DNA of 64,000 bases from Nitrosopumilus sp. GTDB lineage: Archaea; Thermoproteota; Nitrososphaeria; Nitrososphaerales; Nitrosopumilaceae. Under the pieces are notes generated by a model that made no database searches, was not told where the DNA came from, and saw only the letters and a list, made by a program, of their open reading frames with translations. A program made the position numbers and the translations under genes. Below, piece after piece: positions 27,647 through 54,828 of this stretch (its first letter is position 1; each line of letters opens with the position of its first letter). Where the stretch lies: NCBI GenBank assembly GCA_965197525.1, contig OZ240211.1:864001-928000 (forward strand). The letters run 5' to 3'.

Positions 27647-28151
27647 TCCACATATCATTTATTTTATAATAGATATAACAACAATGCATACCAAGAACAA
27701 AAAATTAATGTTGCATGCTTGTCAAATAAATTGGAAGAAGCTAAAATGACTAATTCAGTAAAAAATCCAAAATGATATAGATATTATAAACATTATATCG
27801 TTTCATATGGGGATTATATAGATGGGTTACATTAGCCTCAACTCATAGACAGATCATAAAAAAAGATAGGTGAATGATATTGCATTCAATCGAAAAATAA
27901 TATATTATAATATATTATAATATATTATTTTTTATTTATTTTGAGCCTAACGTAACTAAAATATATAATCCCCTTTCATATTGTAAAAAGTAAGATTTTT
28001 CTGGATATTATAACGATCAATATGAATTCAATTTGACTGGATTTATCTACAGATAAATTTTGGATCTTGACAATAAAAAACTAAATTCATCTTGGCATTG
28101 TAAAAATAAAAAAGTAAGAATTAAAAACAATCTATATCATTTTATCATATC

Positions 28152-28691
28152 TTGCAACTAACTGAGGAGAATCATCATATGATAACGTTGCCTGATTTGG
28201 TACAACCTAGAATGAAAGTTGTATTTGTAGGAACAAATCCCGGGACAAAATCAGCACGAATAGGGCATTATTTTGCAGGTAATAGTAATATGTTTTGGAA
28301 ATTATTATATGAATCTAATTTGACAAAAGAACGGCTTACAACGGAACAGGATAACAAGTTAATCACATATGGTCACGGCCTCACAGATGTGATAAAACGA
28401 CCTACGCGTTCTACATCAGAATTACGAAGAGATGATGGAAACGGTGCAAGAGATCGTTTGAATTCCATTATAGAGAAAAACAGACCTAGCATAGTTGCGT
28501 TTGTAGGTAAAACAGGTTTTAGATACTATCTTGACTACAAGGGTAAATCTATCAAGTATGGTATGCAAAAATTCAAGATTGCCGAATCTTCTGTATACCT
28601 CCTCCCATCTACCAGTGGCCAGAGTTTTGCAGACACTAGTTACAAAGAGAAACTATTTTGGTATAAAAAATTAAAAAAAATTATATCATGA
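28152..28691 (+). CDS. mug: Mismatch-specific uracil-DNA glycosylase (MUG/TDG family), copy A
   Basis: VGTNPG, HYFAGNSNMFW, LTDVIKR, LPSTSG. Confidence 0.9.
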   Translation: MQLTEENHHMITLPDLVQPRMKVVFVGTNPGTKSARIGHYFAGNSNMFWKLLYESNLTKERLTTEQDNKLITYGHGLTDVIKRPTRSTSELRRDDGNGARDRLNSIIEKNRPSIVAFVGKTGFRYYLDYKGKSIKYGMQKFKIAESSVYLLPSTSGQSFADTSYKEKLFWYKKLKKIIS

Positions 28692-29087
28692 ATTTTCTTG
28701 AAATTAAAAAAAGAATCCCAGTACTGACAAAATACATCACGAGAGTTTATTTGGCTACATCGTTGGTTAATTGCAATGAACAAAATACTAGAACCATCAT
28801 TAGAGTATCAATTGATTTGAAATGACAATTGTTAATGAATAGACAGTATAGGATAATCCAAAATTAAATTCAATAGATTTAGTTAGAGACGCCAACATTG
28901 TTAAAAAATACGATATTTGTGTTTCAGAGATCGCCAAACCAAGTACTAAAATAGATATTAATATTACGACTGCAAAGATGTTCACGAAAAAAAATCAGAT
29001 GCGTGTATAGATACAAATGTTTCAAACGCGGGTTTAGGAATAGTCAACCGTAGAGTTTTTTAAGGACTTGTATGCTAAAATAACAAG

Positions 29088-29567
29088 TTGAATTCACCTG
29101 AAAAACTACTAACTCTGTTTCAGGCAATAGACAAAAAACTCTCCATGAATCAGTTTGATGACAAGTTAGAAATTCAAAAAATCACTTACCTAGCTCAAGA
29201 ATATGGGATTGATTTAGAATATGAATTTGAATGGAATAAACGCGGACCATACTGCAAACAAGTATCAGAGCATGCACATATAATCATAGATTCCAGCAGG
29301 AATATCAGTATTGATAATAACTTGAAAAATGAGAAGGAAAAACTATCACAATTTGTAAAAATAATAAAACCTTACATGGATAACACTGAATGGTTAGAAA
29401 TTGCAGCTTCGCTATTATATTTACGAAAAGACAGCTATGAAAACATGGAATTGAATCAAATAATAGGATACCTTATTGAAGACTTGACGTACGGTTACAA
29501 GAATTTCAATGAGGCGTTGGTTAGAAAAGCAATTTCCGAAATGTCGAAGAAAGGATTTTTGACATAA
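29088..29567 (+). CDS. YwgA/Panacea(SocA)-like winged-helix protein
   Basis: LEIQKITYLAQ...LEYEFEW..RGPY pattern. Confidence 0.65.
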   Translation: MNSPEKLLTLFQAIDKKLSMNQFDDKLEIQKITYLAQEYGIDLEYEFEWNKRGPYCKQVSEHAHIIIDSSRNISIDNNLKNEKEKLSQFVKIIKPYMDNTEWLEIAASLLYLRKDSYENMELNQIIGYLIEDLTYGYKNFNEALVRKAISEMSKKGFLT

Positions 29568-29603
29568 CGAAAAAATTCTTCGTTAAAATTATCGTGATAT
29601 GTT

Positions 29604-30622
29604 TTGTGGGACAATAAATGGAAAGAACTACTGAAGGATATTTCTACTAATGGTGTACTGGTATCACGAAAAGATTCAACTAGAAACACACAAGAAACTG
29701 TTTCATACAAATTTGAGATAGATGATTCTAGAAACAGATTAATCTCTGATGAATTACGTGGTATTGATATTTTTCAATGTGTTGGGCAATTTTTATGGAT
29801 TACACAAGGAAATTTCAATGTAGAAGCAATAAAGTATTACCAGCCGATCTCGGACAAATTTTCATCAGATGGGGTCAAAATGATAGGTGCATACGGTCCA
29901 AGATTATTTGGTATCCAACATCTTAATCAGATAGAGCACGTCATAGATACATTAACAGAAGATCCTGGAAAAGAAGGGCTGTAGCATCAATTTATTTGCC
30001 ACAATTTGACCAACACGAATTTGAAAATGAAGAAGTGCCGTGTACTCTGAATCTACAATATCTCATCCGTGATGACAAATTACAGGCAGTAACTTACATG
30101 AGAAGTCAAGATGCATTTAATGTGTTACCATATGATTTTTTCATATTCACAATGCTACAAGAATATCTTCTAAACAGATTAAAACCAGAACACCCAGAAT
30201 TCCAACTTGGAAGATATAATCATTATAGTGGAAGCTTCCATGTTTATCAGAAAGATCTAGATAAGATTAACAAAATCACAGACAATCAATCTTCAAAAAA
30301 CTTTACTATGAAGAAGATGCCATCAAAAAATGTAGAACTTCGTTTACGCGCATTGAATATATTTGAATCAATAGTAAGAACGGCAACATTAGCTAAAGGC
30401 AAGTATAAGATAAAATTTGATTTTGATGCAATGGTAGACGTGATGAATGACTCGTTGAAAGATGAATACTGGAGACAATTAGGATTGATATTATTATCAT
30501 ATAGTGCAATACAGACAGAAGACAGAGAAAGGCATAAACAAATATTTGATTTGTTAGATCCAGAATACAAATATTTTGTAAAACTCCATATTGACAAACA
30601 TCGTCTTACTGGATTCTATTAG
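29604..30622 (+). pseudogene. Thymidylate-synthase-fold cytidylate hydroxymethylase-like gene split by a 1-nt frameshift (29604-29984 + 29996-30622)
   Basis: AYGPRL; one extra A restores DPGKRRAVASIYLPQ; catalytic VPCT; MRSQD; LPYD (Asp at the TS Asn site); GSFHVY. Confidence 0.85.
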
Positions 30623-31136
30623 AATATCTTCTAAGATTTCTATACCATCCTAGTTTTTCATCATAACTTGTGTCCGCATAACTCTGTCCACTAGTAGATG
30701 GAAGAAGATAGATCCTAACATCCTTGTAATAATGTTGAAATCCATATTCTAAAGATGAATAATAGTTATTGGAATAAATCCTAAAACTCATTTTCCCAAC
30801 AAAAGCAAGAATTTTTGGAGATATCATATTCAAAGTACGGTTTAATCGTTGTATGTTTTGGGCCGTGTATTGTTTTTTAATAACAGTTATGTTACTAGTA
30901 GGCTGTTTTATAATATCAGTCAGTCCATAGCAGTAGTTTAACATATAATCATCCTCTTCTGTTTTTAACTGTCGATCTGTCAACTTTGATTCGTAAAGTA
31001 ATCTCCAAAACACGTTAGAGTGACCGGCAAAATAATGGCCTATTTTTGAAGATTTGGTACCCGGACTTGTACCTACAAATAGAATTTGTAGACCTTTTTT
31101 GATTATATCAGGAAGCGGTCGTAAAATTTCTGCCAA
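30606..31136 (-). CDS. mug: Mismatch-specific uracil-DNA glycosylase (MUG/TDG family), copy B
   Basis: VGTSPG, HYFAGHSNVFW, LPSTSG; paralog of 28152-28691. Confidence 0.9.
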   Translation of the reverse strand: MAEILRPLPDIIKKGLQILFVGTSPGTKSSKIGHYFAGHSNVFWRLLYESKLTDRQLKTEEDDYMLNYCYGLTDIIKQPTSNITVIKKQYTAQNIQRLNRTLNMISPKILAFVGKMSFRIYSNNYYSSLEYGFQHYYKDVRIYLLPSTSGQSYADTSYDEKLGWYRNLRRYSNRIQ

Positions 31137-31801
31137 TAAAATAGCGTAAAATTACTCATAAAAAAATATGTTTGTAGAAATGACTCAATTCAACTTTAAA
31201 TTTACGATTATAGGCATTATACAACGATATGAAGGTATGCACTCATGCCCAGTGCAAATCTAGGCAAGAATTATGTTTTTGTTTACAAGGGATCTGAGTC
31301 CATATATATGGAGCATGTCGATAGACATCTGTTACTCACGCCTCCATATACGTAAATTCGTTAACGGTATTTATAATAATAGTTCTTGCATTATTAACAT
31401 ATTCATTTGATGACGTCAATGGAATATTTATCCAATTATAATCAAAGTGATATGTTTCTTCTCAGCCTTTCGAGCGAATAATCAATTCTTTGATCTTTAA
31501 TACATCTACGGTCTCACATATCAAAGTGTAGTATAGCCACCTCTATATCAATAATAAGAAGAAAGAATATGTTTTGGAATTTCTGATCACATTAAATTTA
31601 ACATAATTGTCGCATCTTTTGTTGATTTACATCTCCAAACAACGCAAGGTAAAAAATTAACAAGTATGAATTACAGGTAACCTGAACAGTTATTTTATGT
31701 AAAACAAGTGCTTGATCATCAATTTTTACTTAGGTATCAACTATAAGTGTATAAAACTGTAAAAAAGAAATATGTCAATAAAGAAAATTGTCAGTGATTG
31801 T

Positions 31802-32260
31802 TTATGTGTCGTCGGCAGTTGTCGTATCGTCAGTTGTTACATCAGTTGCCGCTGCTGCATCATCGGGTTTTGCATCATCTACTTTGGTTGATTTTCGTAC
31901 AACGTAATCAGGTTGCGGCTTTTGCATATCTTCAGAATTACAAAATGGTTTATAGTGATTCATGATTTTATTTACCACGTTCTTTCGGTAAATGTCATTT
32001 GACTCAAATAAAGGCAATATTGCCAAATGTAACGAACCATTGGAACCTAAATTCTGTGTCCAACACTTGTAACGGGGGTGTTGTATAAAAAACGACGGAT
32101 CGTCAGTTTTATCACAGTCACCAACATAACATATACTAAATTTATCAGCATTACGTAAAAGAATCAAATAAACTAATTTTTCCATAGGTGGGCCCCATTC
32201 TTCAAGAGGAATTGGTCCGAGAAACTCATATTGAAGGATTTGTATGCTCAATAAATTCAT
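31802..32260 (-). CDS. Hypothetical protein
   Basis: 152-aa ORF with low-complexity Asp/Thr tail. Confidence 0.7.
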   Translation of the reverse strand: MNLLSIQILQYEFLGPIPLEEWGPPMEKLVYLILLRNADKFSICYVGDCDKTDDPSFFIQHPRYKCWTQNLGSNGSLHLAILPLFESNDIYRKNVVNKIMNHYKPFCNSEDMQKPQPDYVVRKSTKVDDAKPDDAAAATDVTTDDTTTADDT

Positions 32261-54748: not shown

Positions 54749-54756
54749 TAGAATTG

Positions 54757-54828
54757 TGATGGTAGTGGGAATTGAACCCACGTCGTATGGGTCGGAATCC
54801 ATACATCATACCACTAGACCATACAACC
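54757..54828 (-). tRNA. tRNA-like sequence with 8-nt anticodon loop (possible pseudo-tRNA)
   Basis: D arm GTCTAGTGGTATGAT; perfect T arm GTGGG-TTCAATT-CCCAC; anticodon stem TATGG/CCATA around ATTCCGAC; weak acceptor stem. Confidence 0.6.

Follow-up and report, generated by a model that had tools for sequence, protein, structure and literature searches.

Why should an ammonia-oxidising archaeon hold, within a short block of low-GC DNA, a homologue of thymidylate synthase (TS) side by side with two genes for DNA glycosylases of the MUG/TDG type? The question is raised by a stretch of 64,000 nucleotides (hereafter the window; positions 864,001 to 928,000 of contig OZ240211.1, assembly GCA_965197525.1) from a Nitrosopumilus genome that is complete, consists of a single contig and has a size of 2.21 Mb. 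The block entered by horizontal insertion and is a copy, inactivated in part, of an accessory module that is conserved in the Nitrosopumilaceae. The core of this module is an operon-like pair, formed by the gene for a protein referred to here as X and the gene for the TS homologue, together with a convergent gene for a MUG/TDG-type glycosylase; most copies add a second MUG gene and a gene for a nucleotide N-hydrolase. With a probability of roughly 40% we interpret the module as a mobile conflict system, of the antiviral or addiction type, that makes deoxycytidine monophosphate (dCMP) modified at C5 and acts on modified pyrimidines both in the nucleotide pool and within DNA.

The module and its insertion site

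The features of the island in the window, and the host gene at its right-hand border, are the following.

27650-31889, no strand assigned: inserted low-GC island of 4.24 kb (synteny, empty-site alignment, GC profile)
28152-28691, plus strand: MUG-A, intact member of family 2 (MUG/TDG type) of the uracil-DNA glycosylase (UDG) superfamily (PF03167, 9.7e-18)
about 28741-29004, plus strand: pseudogene of a DNPH1/MilB-type nucleoside 5'-monophosphate N-glycosidase, referred to here as the N-hydrolase (tblastn and DNA alignment against the intact gene of locus L004)
29088-29567, plus strand: X, intact, acidic, 159 amino acids, homologue of the DarG C-terminal domain without a macrodomain
29604-29984, plus strand: 5' piece of the TS homologue (PF00303, 5.4e-5), residues 1-122 of about 339, followed by four out-of-frame codons and a TAG stop
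29967-29975, plus strand: frameshift site, GGAAAAGAA in the window and GGAAAGAGA in the closest orthologue, one base missing
29969/29996-30622, plus strand: 3' piece of the TS homologue (PF00303, 7.2e-8), residues about 123-339
30606-31136, minus strand: MUG-B, intact convergent paralogue of MUG-A (PF03167, 9e-15)
31802-32260, minus strand: host flanking gene for a protein of 152 amino acids (empty-site alignment; no Pfam, PADLOC or NCBIfam match)

The order X, TS homologue, convergent MUG gene recurs in about 28 loci, which were pooled from genomes, assemblies and metagenomes and are not all independent, and this recurrence rules out a chance grouping of the genes. In all 25 loci in which this could be assessed, X immediately precedes the TS homologue. 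MUG-B is convergent downstream of the TS homologue in 21 of the 22 assessable intact loci and abuts or overlaps its 3' end; in the window the last 17 bp of the 3' piece, stop included, are shared with the end of MUG-B. MUG-A was found in 19 loci and is missing from two assessable ones, and the N-hydrolase was found in 15 and is missing from at least six loci with an intact TS gene. A divergent locus (L068, TS identity 37-40%) keeps X, the TS homologue (with Gln at position 58) and a single convergent MUG gene with its catalytic Asn. The earlier note on this DNA had proposed a search for co-occurring TS, MUG and YwgA-like genes in other genomes as a check of its grouping, and the roughly 28 loci together with L068 bear the grouping out strongly. 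A still more distant TS homologue (350 amino acids) is found with a convergent, overlapping gene for a UDG-family protein of 220 amino acids beside xseA, xseB and DUF3644 (P0144 locus), which suggests that the pair of TS homologue and UDG also exists outside the Nitrosopumilaceae. For all five genes of the module the median ratio of nonsynonymous to synonymous substitution rates (dN/dS) was between 0.16 and 0.25, indicative of purifying selection.

Within the Nitrosopumilaceae the TS homologue was detected in seven of 401 genomes (seven of the 246 high-quality ones) and in three of 27 genera, with one genome carrying two copies; besides the genome of the window, the family members come from Nitrosarchaeum and uncultured Nitrosopumilaceae. 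The flanks of the module vary among genomes, and transposases of insertion sequences (IS) and a HaeIII-like restriction-enzyme fragment occur nearby. The closest intact module, L004, adjoins a truncated gene for a HaeIII-like type II restriction enzyme (L004:3707-4192) as well as transposases of IS (DDE_3 and IS66, L004:1-3469).

The insertion in the window was delimited by comparison with related genomes. Its flanks are collinear in 15 genomes of the same genus, in which positions 27664-31888 of the window have no counterpart, and at the empty site only about 110-136 bp separate the flanking genes (genomes G183, G357 and G254 aligned to the window). The GC content at 27-33 kb of the window is 0.31-0.33, against 0.39-0.41 on both sides, and similarity of the island DNA to L004 (78-81%) is restricted to positions 28109-31178. 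Neither terminal inverted repeats nor a target duplication were recognised at the island ends. The 3' end of the 152-amino-acid flanking gene (31802-31889) lies within the insertion, by which the Cys-containing C-terminus found in related genomes has been replaced. In the window the C-terminus of this protein is a low-complexity tail of Asp, Thr and Ala.

The earlier note had described a low-GC block at 27650-31800 with mug-A, a YwgA-like gene and a TS-fold gene on the plus strand and a convergent mug-B on the minus strand. All four genes are found at the places given and the left border stands, while synteny moves the right border to 31889; a fifth gene, the N-hydrolase pseudogene at about 28741-29004, had been missed. 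The statement that no kinase, glycosyltransferase or antibiotic gene adjoins the island agrees with the list of open reading frames and with the Pfam scan.

In its left spacer the island is AT-rich and contains a pair of inverted repeats of 33 nt (82%) and a perfect palindrome of 20+20 nt (27809-27973 and 27893-27932), of which no convincing further copy was found elsewhere in the genome. Weak repeats of the right-hand spacer occur elsewhere in the genome, and this trail led nowhere.

The thymidylate synthase homologue

Intact TS homologues of the family have 333-345 amino acids, and the closest one is 72% identical to the window copy over 339 amino acids. When the PDB was searched with phmmer, MilA was the best match (2.2e-29), followed by classical TS (about 1e-9 to 1e-12) and T4 gp42 (8e-8). 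An AlphaFold2 model of an intact orthologue (pLDDT 85.7) was compared with solved structures using Foldseek, which gave a TM score of 0.80 to MilA over 333 columns, including the extra C-terminal five-helix domain described for MilA (PMC5175136), and, for classical TS, TM scores of 0.55-0.57 to the E. coli enzyme. In the window this MilA-like helical domain is part of the 3' piece, as are the catalytic Cys and the motifs RSQD and LPYD.

For the assignment of active-site residues the TS family was aligned with annotated records of E. coli ThyA, T4 gp42 and RB69 gp48, and 65 members were scored. VPCT supplies the Cys that corresponds to E. coli Cys146, and LPYD the Asp at the position of Asn177, as the earlier note had read from the window alone, and each is present in all 65 members. 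In RRAV lie the counterparts of Arg126/127 and in RSQD those of Ser167/Asp169, with Arg126 kept in 65 and Ser167 in 64 of the 65. The residue three positions before the Cys, corresponding to Leu143, is Glu in every member; it was counted directly, since the column for Leu143 in the automatic alignment was unreliable. According to the literature Asp at the position of Asn177 confers cytosine specificity (PMC5175136, PMC13326640), a rule on which the earlier note had relied, and an acidic residue three before the Cys gives a hydroxymethyl rather than a methyl product (PMC13326640). In MilA, Lys133 and Ala176 give the preference for the ribonucleotide cytidine monophosphate (CMP), and an A176S/K133R mutant switches to dCMP (PMC5175136); the same source confirms the deoxy-type character of RRAV and RSQD (Arg126, Ser167), which the earlier note had put forward. 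On the basis of these residues dCMP is well supported as the predicted substrate, and a hydroxymethyl group at C5 is only the most likely option for the product.

The window copy of the gene is split by a deletion of one nucleotide at about 29970, in GGAAA(G)AGAAGG, as seen in the DNA alignment with L004 and in the translations. Past this site the -1 frame continues into the family consensus GKRRAV, and in all other genomes searched that have a member of the family the gene is in a single reading frame. The earlier description as a thymidylate-synthase-fold gene thus holds for the fold, as both pieces match PF00303, and fails for a single intact gene. A sequencing or assembly error was considered as the cause of the frameshift and is unlikely because independently assembled public contigs carry the same sequence: the region is identical, without differences or gaps, in Logan contigs of three runs from two samples, all from one study that may include the source sample and with no read type on record. 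Among the public runs listed as containing the region there was none of RNA. Apart from the frameshift the window copy deviates at only one of 62 family-invariant positions (P42S), and in comparison with L004 its dN/dS is no higher than that found between intact copies; the break is recent. A programmed -1 slippage at A-AAA-G, by which the consensus TS peptide would be restored, is only a thought, against which stands the single frame of every relative.

The island copy is the sole gene of ThyA fold in the genome, where ThyX is also present. The ThyX gene (G000:C1:97151-98518) is one frame of 565 amino acids with two Thy1 domains and is apparently a tandem fusion. As a separate observation on the TS family, the occurrence of Asn169 in 15 of 65 members (e.g. 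P0071; proteins P0004-P0074) raises the possibility that two different products are formed within it.

Relatives of the TS homologue outside the archaea were also inspected. Three bacterial islands (L018, L019 and L020) combine a MilA-type TS that keeps Glu58 with DUF4031, aGPT-Pplase3/ADDT, a thymidylate-kinase-like protein, Mrr, a HipA toxin and an integrase, and look like DNA-hypermodification islands encoded by cells. A phage-like relative (L048) has a TS homologue with Glu58, a kinase and a dCMP deaminase. A viral origin of the archaeal family was rejected, as no member was found in IMG/VR and tblastn matches in phage genomes were distant (at most 31.6% identity among the matches listed).

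Glycosylases, N-hydrolase and protein X

MUG-A, for which ATG at 28179 is the likely start as judged from its orthologues, has E. coli MUG (1.2e-21) and human TDG (1e-20) as its best solved relatives, and MUG-B matches the same two proteins. Against the NCBIfam Mug model MUG-A scored 105.6 and MUG-B 85.3 bits, both below the equivalog cut-off of 144 bits. The two proteins share about 50% identity, in line with the earlier view of mug-B as a diverged paralogue of mug-A, and they differ in addition in a catalytic residue: the Asn of GTNPG is present in MUG-A and invariant in eight of eight orthologues, and MUG-B is without it, with GTSPG in seven of eight orthologues and GTRPG in one. Both are basic (isoelectric points 9.7-9.9) and under purifying selection (dN/dS about 0.16 for MUG-A and 0.20 for MUG-B). 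Because L068 has one convergent MUG gene with the Asn, the pair probably arose from a later duplication, after which the Asn was lost from the copy that kept the ancestral place. The genome of the window also encodes a separate UDG that scores higher than the MUGs, and in this genus MUG homologues are restricted to the context of the module.

The N-hydrolase pseudogene lies between MUG-A and X. It is spread over two frames, contains three in-frame stops and a changed codon for the catalytic Glu, and has lost about 230 bp of its 3' end. A profile built from 12 intact orthologues matched DNPH1 (3.6e-10), MilB (6.9e-8) and, more weakly, classical deoxyribosyltransferase (1.4e-3), and the catalytic Glu (in PSxGxGxE) is invariant in all 12. 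DNPH1 is listed in the PDB under the name 5-hydroxymethyl-dUMP N-hydrolase.

In a subclade of loci (L036:168-686, L038:2703-3719, L039:3319-4419) an extra gene for a protein of 340-366 amino acids is located between the N-hydrolase and X. It had no match in Pfam or the PDB; language-model features returned a MazG-like assignment (0.89), a weak lead that would make it a candidate dCTPase.

X was matched by the DarG models of PADLOC (1.3e-8) and NCBIfam (6.9e-7), in both cases over the C-terminal part alone (positions 168-291 of the 329 in the DarG model). Its AlphaFold2 model (pLDDT 91) retrieved 7yk3_B with a probability of 1.0 in Foldseek, and VIA-align superimposed it on 7yk3_D, the DarG chain of the M. 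tuberculosis DarTG complex, with Z 11.2 and a root-mean-square deviation of 3.0 Å over 141 residues; the runner-up of the structure search reached Z 4.8. The family is acidic, with a median isoelectric point of 4.86 and a net charge of -9. The C-terminal domain of DarG is described as binding and blocking DarT through mimicry of single-stranded DNA (Deep et al., 2023, as cited in PMC11825919). No Pfam family was assigned to X in the scan of the window or of the family proteins, and Panacea/DUF4065 was absent from the Pfam matches of 27 family members at E-values up to 1. Of the earlier label YwgA/Panacea-like, the first half survives in that one source gives the name YwgA to a relative, X being a DarG C-terminal-domain homologue, and the second half finds no Pfam match, though a remote relationship by way of DarG is conceivable. 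No DarT-like gene was present in any module locus examined; a search of the window genome with PF14487 (DarT) also gave no match, with the controls equally silent.

Close homologues of X were additionally found next to DUF5131 or GAP1-N2 genes in places where the module is absent, and distant paralogues occur in 60 of the 401 genomes, with up to nine per genome. One paralogue in the window genome adjoins a PIN gene (G000:C1:1874901-1875290; L027:5827-6303). The expansion of X paralogues beside varied genes suggests a general partner role or a role like that of an antitoxin.

In the genome of the window the nucleotide-level half of the module is dead, with the N-hydrolase a pseudogene and the TS gene frameshifted, and the frames of MUG-A, X and MUG-B are intact. 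Decay is also seen in other copies: G370 retains a TS stub and has lost MUG-B, G080 has a frameshifted MUG-A and has lost the TS gene, L015 has no MUG-B and an X interrupted by an IS, and MUG-B is frameshifted in L009.

Elsewhere in the window, at 54756-54828 on the minus strand, there is a tRNA-like gene to which ARAGORN assigns the four-base anticodon tccg (Rfam tRNA, 48.6 bits).

Readings of the module and comparison with known systems

Under the conflict reading the TS homologue would convert dCMP to a C5-modified, most likely hydroxymethylated dCMP, the N-hydrolase would split modified deoxynucleoside monophosphates, and MUG-A, which keeps its catalytic Asn, would remove a 5-substituted pyrimidine from DNA, all three roles being predicted from residues. 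MUG-B (Asn to Ser) may bind such sites or process them differently, and X would curb one of the module enzymes by binding to it, much as DarT is curbed by the C-terminal domain of DarG. Once released, the enzyme would taint the deoxycytidine pool; fast-replicating DNA would incorporate the modified base and be attacked by the glycosylase, with the N-hydrolase and X limiting damage to the host. We favour a conflict role because a putative maker of the modified nucleotide stays linked to three breakers and to a binder, and because the module is accessory, mobile and quickly lost. Presence in only seven of 401 genomes, differing flanks with IS and a restriction-enzyme fragment, and frequent decay are traits typical of conflict systems. 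The module is extra to housekeeping, since the genome has ThyX and a separate UDG. A precedent is Brig1, an antiviral glycosylase of the UDG superfamily directed against bases derived from 5-hydroxymethylcytosine (hmC) (PMC11078745).

Several observations weigh against this reading. In the TS homologue, position 58 is occupied by Gln in 43, His in 21 and Thr in one of the 65 members and by Glu in none (Gln in the window); Glu is kept in E. coli TS, T4 gp42, RB69 gp48 and distant bacterial relatives, and the residue (Glu68 in MilA, Glu60 in T4) has been called extremely conserved (PMC5175136). Trp80 is replaced by Ala or Ser, and Asp169 by Asn in the 15 members mentioned above, the window copy having Asp (RSQD); Asn at this position marks 5-hydroxy-dCMP synthases of the RB69 gp48 type (PMC13326640). 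The replacements of Glu58 and Trp80 set the family apart from every characterised relative. Since both are lost and D169N is found in part of the family, it is uncertain what product is formed and even whether folate is used. The three roles put forward in the earlier note (marking of viral DNA for excision, an antidote to hmU:G lesions, attack on modified viral DNA) are complicated by these departures, by the inactivated state of the window copy and by the missing catalytic Asn of MUG-B. No deoxynucleoside monophosphate kinase or dCTPase that could move the product into the triphosphate pool was found in the window or in the roughly 28 related loci. MUG/TDG enzymes are not known to excise hmC, and the excision step therefore needs a new specificity. 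With regard to X, the TS and UDG pair linked to xseAB is without it, and in L015, with its IS-interrupted X, the TS frame is still open; a strict toxin-antitoxin dependence is disfavoured for these reasons. PADLOC-DB v2 returned a partial DarG match for X and none for the TS homologue, the MUGs or the N-hydrolase, no member of the TS family was found on IMG/VR viral contigs, and the module has no known target virus.

The chief rival is modification of the cell's own DNA with built-in repair: 5-hydroxymethyl-dCMP from the TS homologue would enter that DNA by way of host kinases, and the other enzymes would only clear the products of its deamination, the DNPH1-like hydrolase by destroying 5-hydroxymethyl-dUMP in the pool and the MUGs by removing 5-hydroxymethyluracil (hmU) paired with G; X would act as a regulator. 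We regard it as unlikely, and as the alternative deserving most weight. No new enzyme specificity would be required, given that excision from hmU:G is an established activity of the TDG/MUG family and that DNPH1 bears the name of a 5-hydroxymethyl-dUMP N-hydrolase. In this genus MUG occurs only alongside the TS homologue, as would a repair enzyme that travels with a modification, and the pair of TS and MUG is the deepest conserved core, found even without X. Distant TS relatives belong to bacterial DNA-hypermodification islands with aGPT-Pplase3/ADDT and Mrr, and modification islands are likewise patchy and mobile. However, without a dCTPase or a dedicated kinase the replacement of C would be only partial and random and would make a poor mark of self, and there is no conserved restriction partner. 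The acidic DarG-like X, with paralogues next to PIN and GAP1 genes, points to conflict or toxin control rather than to a DNA-binding regulator, MUG-B has lost its catalytic Asn, and frequent decay speaks against an integrated, genome-wide function.

The conflict reading can also be given a more specific form, that of a poison-and-excise immune or addiction system of a kind not yet described. Here a C5 modifier of dCMP lacking Glu58 and having an opened Trp80 pocket would be freed from the acidic, DNA-mimic-like X upon infection, a MUG paralogue would excise the modified base from viral DNA, and the DNPH1-like hydrolase together with the altered MUG-B would shield the slowly replicating host chromosome. 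In this full detail we consider the scheme rather doubtful.

Depletion of deoxycytidine nucleotides is improbable. The TS homologue and the N-hydrolase would turn dCMP irreversibly into free 5-hydroxymethylcytosine and deoxyribose 5-phosphate and thereby starve replication, with a bacteriostatic effect of the kind seen in abortive infection or with toxin-antitoxin pairs, leaving to the MUGs the repair of collateral misincorporation. The scheme would mirror the reactions of MilA and MilB at the level of deoxynucleotides, with an outcome analogous to that of dCTP-deaminase and dGTPase defences; the position of X directly upstream of an enzyme gene resembles that of an antitoxin before its toxin, and the subclade gene with the weak MazG-like signal might, as a lead only, be a dCTP pyrophosphatase. 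Yet at least six loci with an intact TS gene have no N-hydrolase, a MUG accompanies the TS homologue more constantly, and the MazG lead lacks Pfam or PDB support.

Small chances only can likewise be given to a module directed against hydroxymethylpyrimidines, in which the glycosylases would attack viral DNA containing hmC or hmU in the manner of Brig1, and the N-hydrolase and the TS homologue (running in reverse or as a binder) would detoxify or salvage the released nucleotides. Defence by a UDG-superfamily enzyme against hmC-derived bases is proven (PMC11078745), all catalytic parts would share one substrate class, and the loss of Glu58 would be in keeping with chemistry that is altered or non-canonical. 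Against it, the other cofactor- and substrate-positioning residues of the TS homologue are kept under purifying selection, as in a working synthase, and a reverse TS reaction is undocumented. We know of no virus of these archaea with hmC or hmU in its DNA, and no search for one was made.

A small-molecule pathway, in which free 5-hydroxymethylcytosine would go into a pyrimidine metabolite or an antimetabolite on the model of MilA/MilB or BcmA/BcmB, would explain why MilA, C-terminal domain included, is the best solved relative and why 15 loci have a MilB/DNPH1-clade N-glycosidase. It is very improbable nonetheless, as the ribo-specific Lys133 and Ala176 are replaced by deoxy-type Arg and Ser, the loci have no tailoring, export or resistance genes, and the constant partners are DNA glycosylases, with the N-glycosidase dispensable. 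Ordinary housekeeping neighbours, i.e. a thymidylate synthase for dTMP and U:G mismatch repair as the Pfam and NCBIfam names (thymidylate synthase, Mug) would have it, can be dismissed in view of Asp for Asn177 in 65 of 65 members, NCBIfam scores that are all far below the equivalog cut-offs, ThyX and another UDG in the genome, the lack of the module in 394 of the 401 family genomes searched, and the location of the genes in an insertion.

Compared with known systems, the TS homologue shares with T4 gp42 the ThyA fold, the catalytic Cys, Asp at the position of Asn177, the acidic residue three before the Cys, Ser167 and Arg126, and is therefore predicted to use dCMP and to form a hydroxymethyl product. 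It differs in its low identity (about 20-25%), in having a MilA-type C-terminal domain, in lacking Glu58 and Trp80, and in being cellular rather than viral. The partners of T4 gp42 are the gp1 kinase, the gp56 dCTPase and glucosyltransferases, whereas the archaeal enzyme is accompanied by glycosylases and the N-hydrolase and by no kinase, dCTPase or glycosyltransferase. Its best solved relative in sequence and fold is MilA, which in mildiomycin synthesis, like BcmA in that of bacimethrin, hydroxymethylates CMP and is paired with an N-glycosidase for hydroxymethyl-CMP (MilB, BcmB) of the same clade as the partner found here. Unlike in MilA, the positions of Lys133 and Ala176 hold Arg and Ser and that of Glu68 holds Gln or His; also unlike the MilA/MilB clusters, the module belongs to no antibiotic gene cluster and has DNA glycosylases as constant partners. 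The bacterial MilA-type TS islands contain, at about 30% identity, the closest relatives found outside the archaea, which are likewise cellular and have the same C-terminal domain and Asp177. Those enzymes, in contrast, keep Glu58 and are paired with base-hypermodification transferases and a restriction nuclease, without glycosylases, N-hydrolase or X.

X is acidic and resembles the DarG of DarTG in the C-terminal domain, as judged by hidden Markov models and by structure; it differs in that it has no macrodomain, that the module has no DarT, and that its neighbour is a TS homologue instead of an ADP-ribosyltransferase. Brig1, which excises alpha-glucosyl-hmC in defence (PMC11078745), is an enzyme of the UDG superfamily like the MUGs. 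It is, however, a single gene with a family-4 UDG as its best structural match, whereas the archaeal proteins are family-2 paralogues linked to a predicted maker of a modified nucleotide.

Each part of the module comes from a known family, but their combination (a putative dCMP-modifying TS homologue, MUG/TDG glycosylases, a DNPH1-like hydrolase and a DarG-like binder) was found described nowhere in the literature searched or in PADLOC, and the full-text search returned nothing relevant on an archaeal hydroxymethylase-glycosylase system, on hmC in Nitrosopumilus or on YwgA. The module would represent either a new antiviral use of a modified nucleotide or a new modification of self DNA with its own repair, in hosts that are abundant ammonia-oxidising archaea and whose defence against viruses is poorly known. 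The TS family would moreover offer a natural experiment in TS chemistry without Glu58, and in MUG-B a family-2 glycosylase has been conserved that lacks the catalytic Asn.

A further parallel is found in mammals. There a hydroxymethyl-pyrimidine nucleotide turns toxic once it has been built into DNA and cut out again, and the 5-hydroxymethyldeoxyuridine axis formed by DNPH1 with SMUG1 and TDG shares with the archaeal module a DNPH1-like N-hydrolase and glycosylases of the TDG/MUG family. The module differs in including the predicted source enzyme of the modified nucleotide and in having its genes clustered and mobile, and it would constitute a prokaryotic counterpart of this mammalian axis of hydroxymethyl-pyrimidine toxicity and sanitation.

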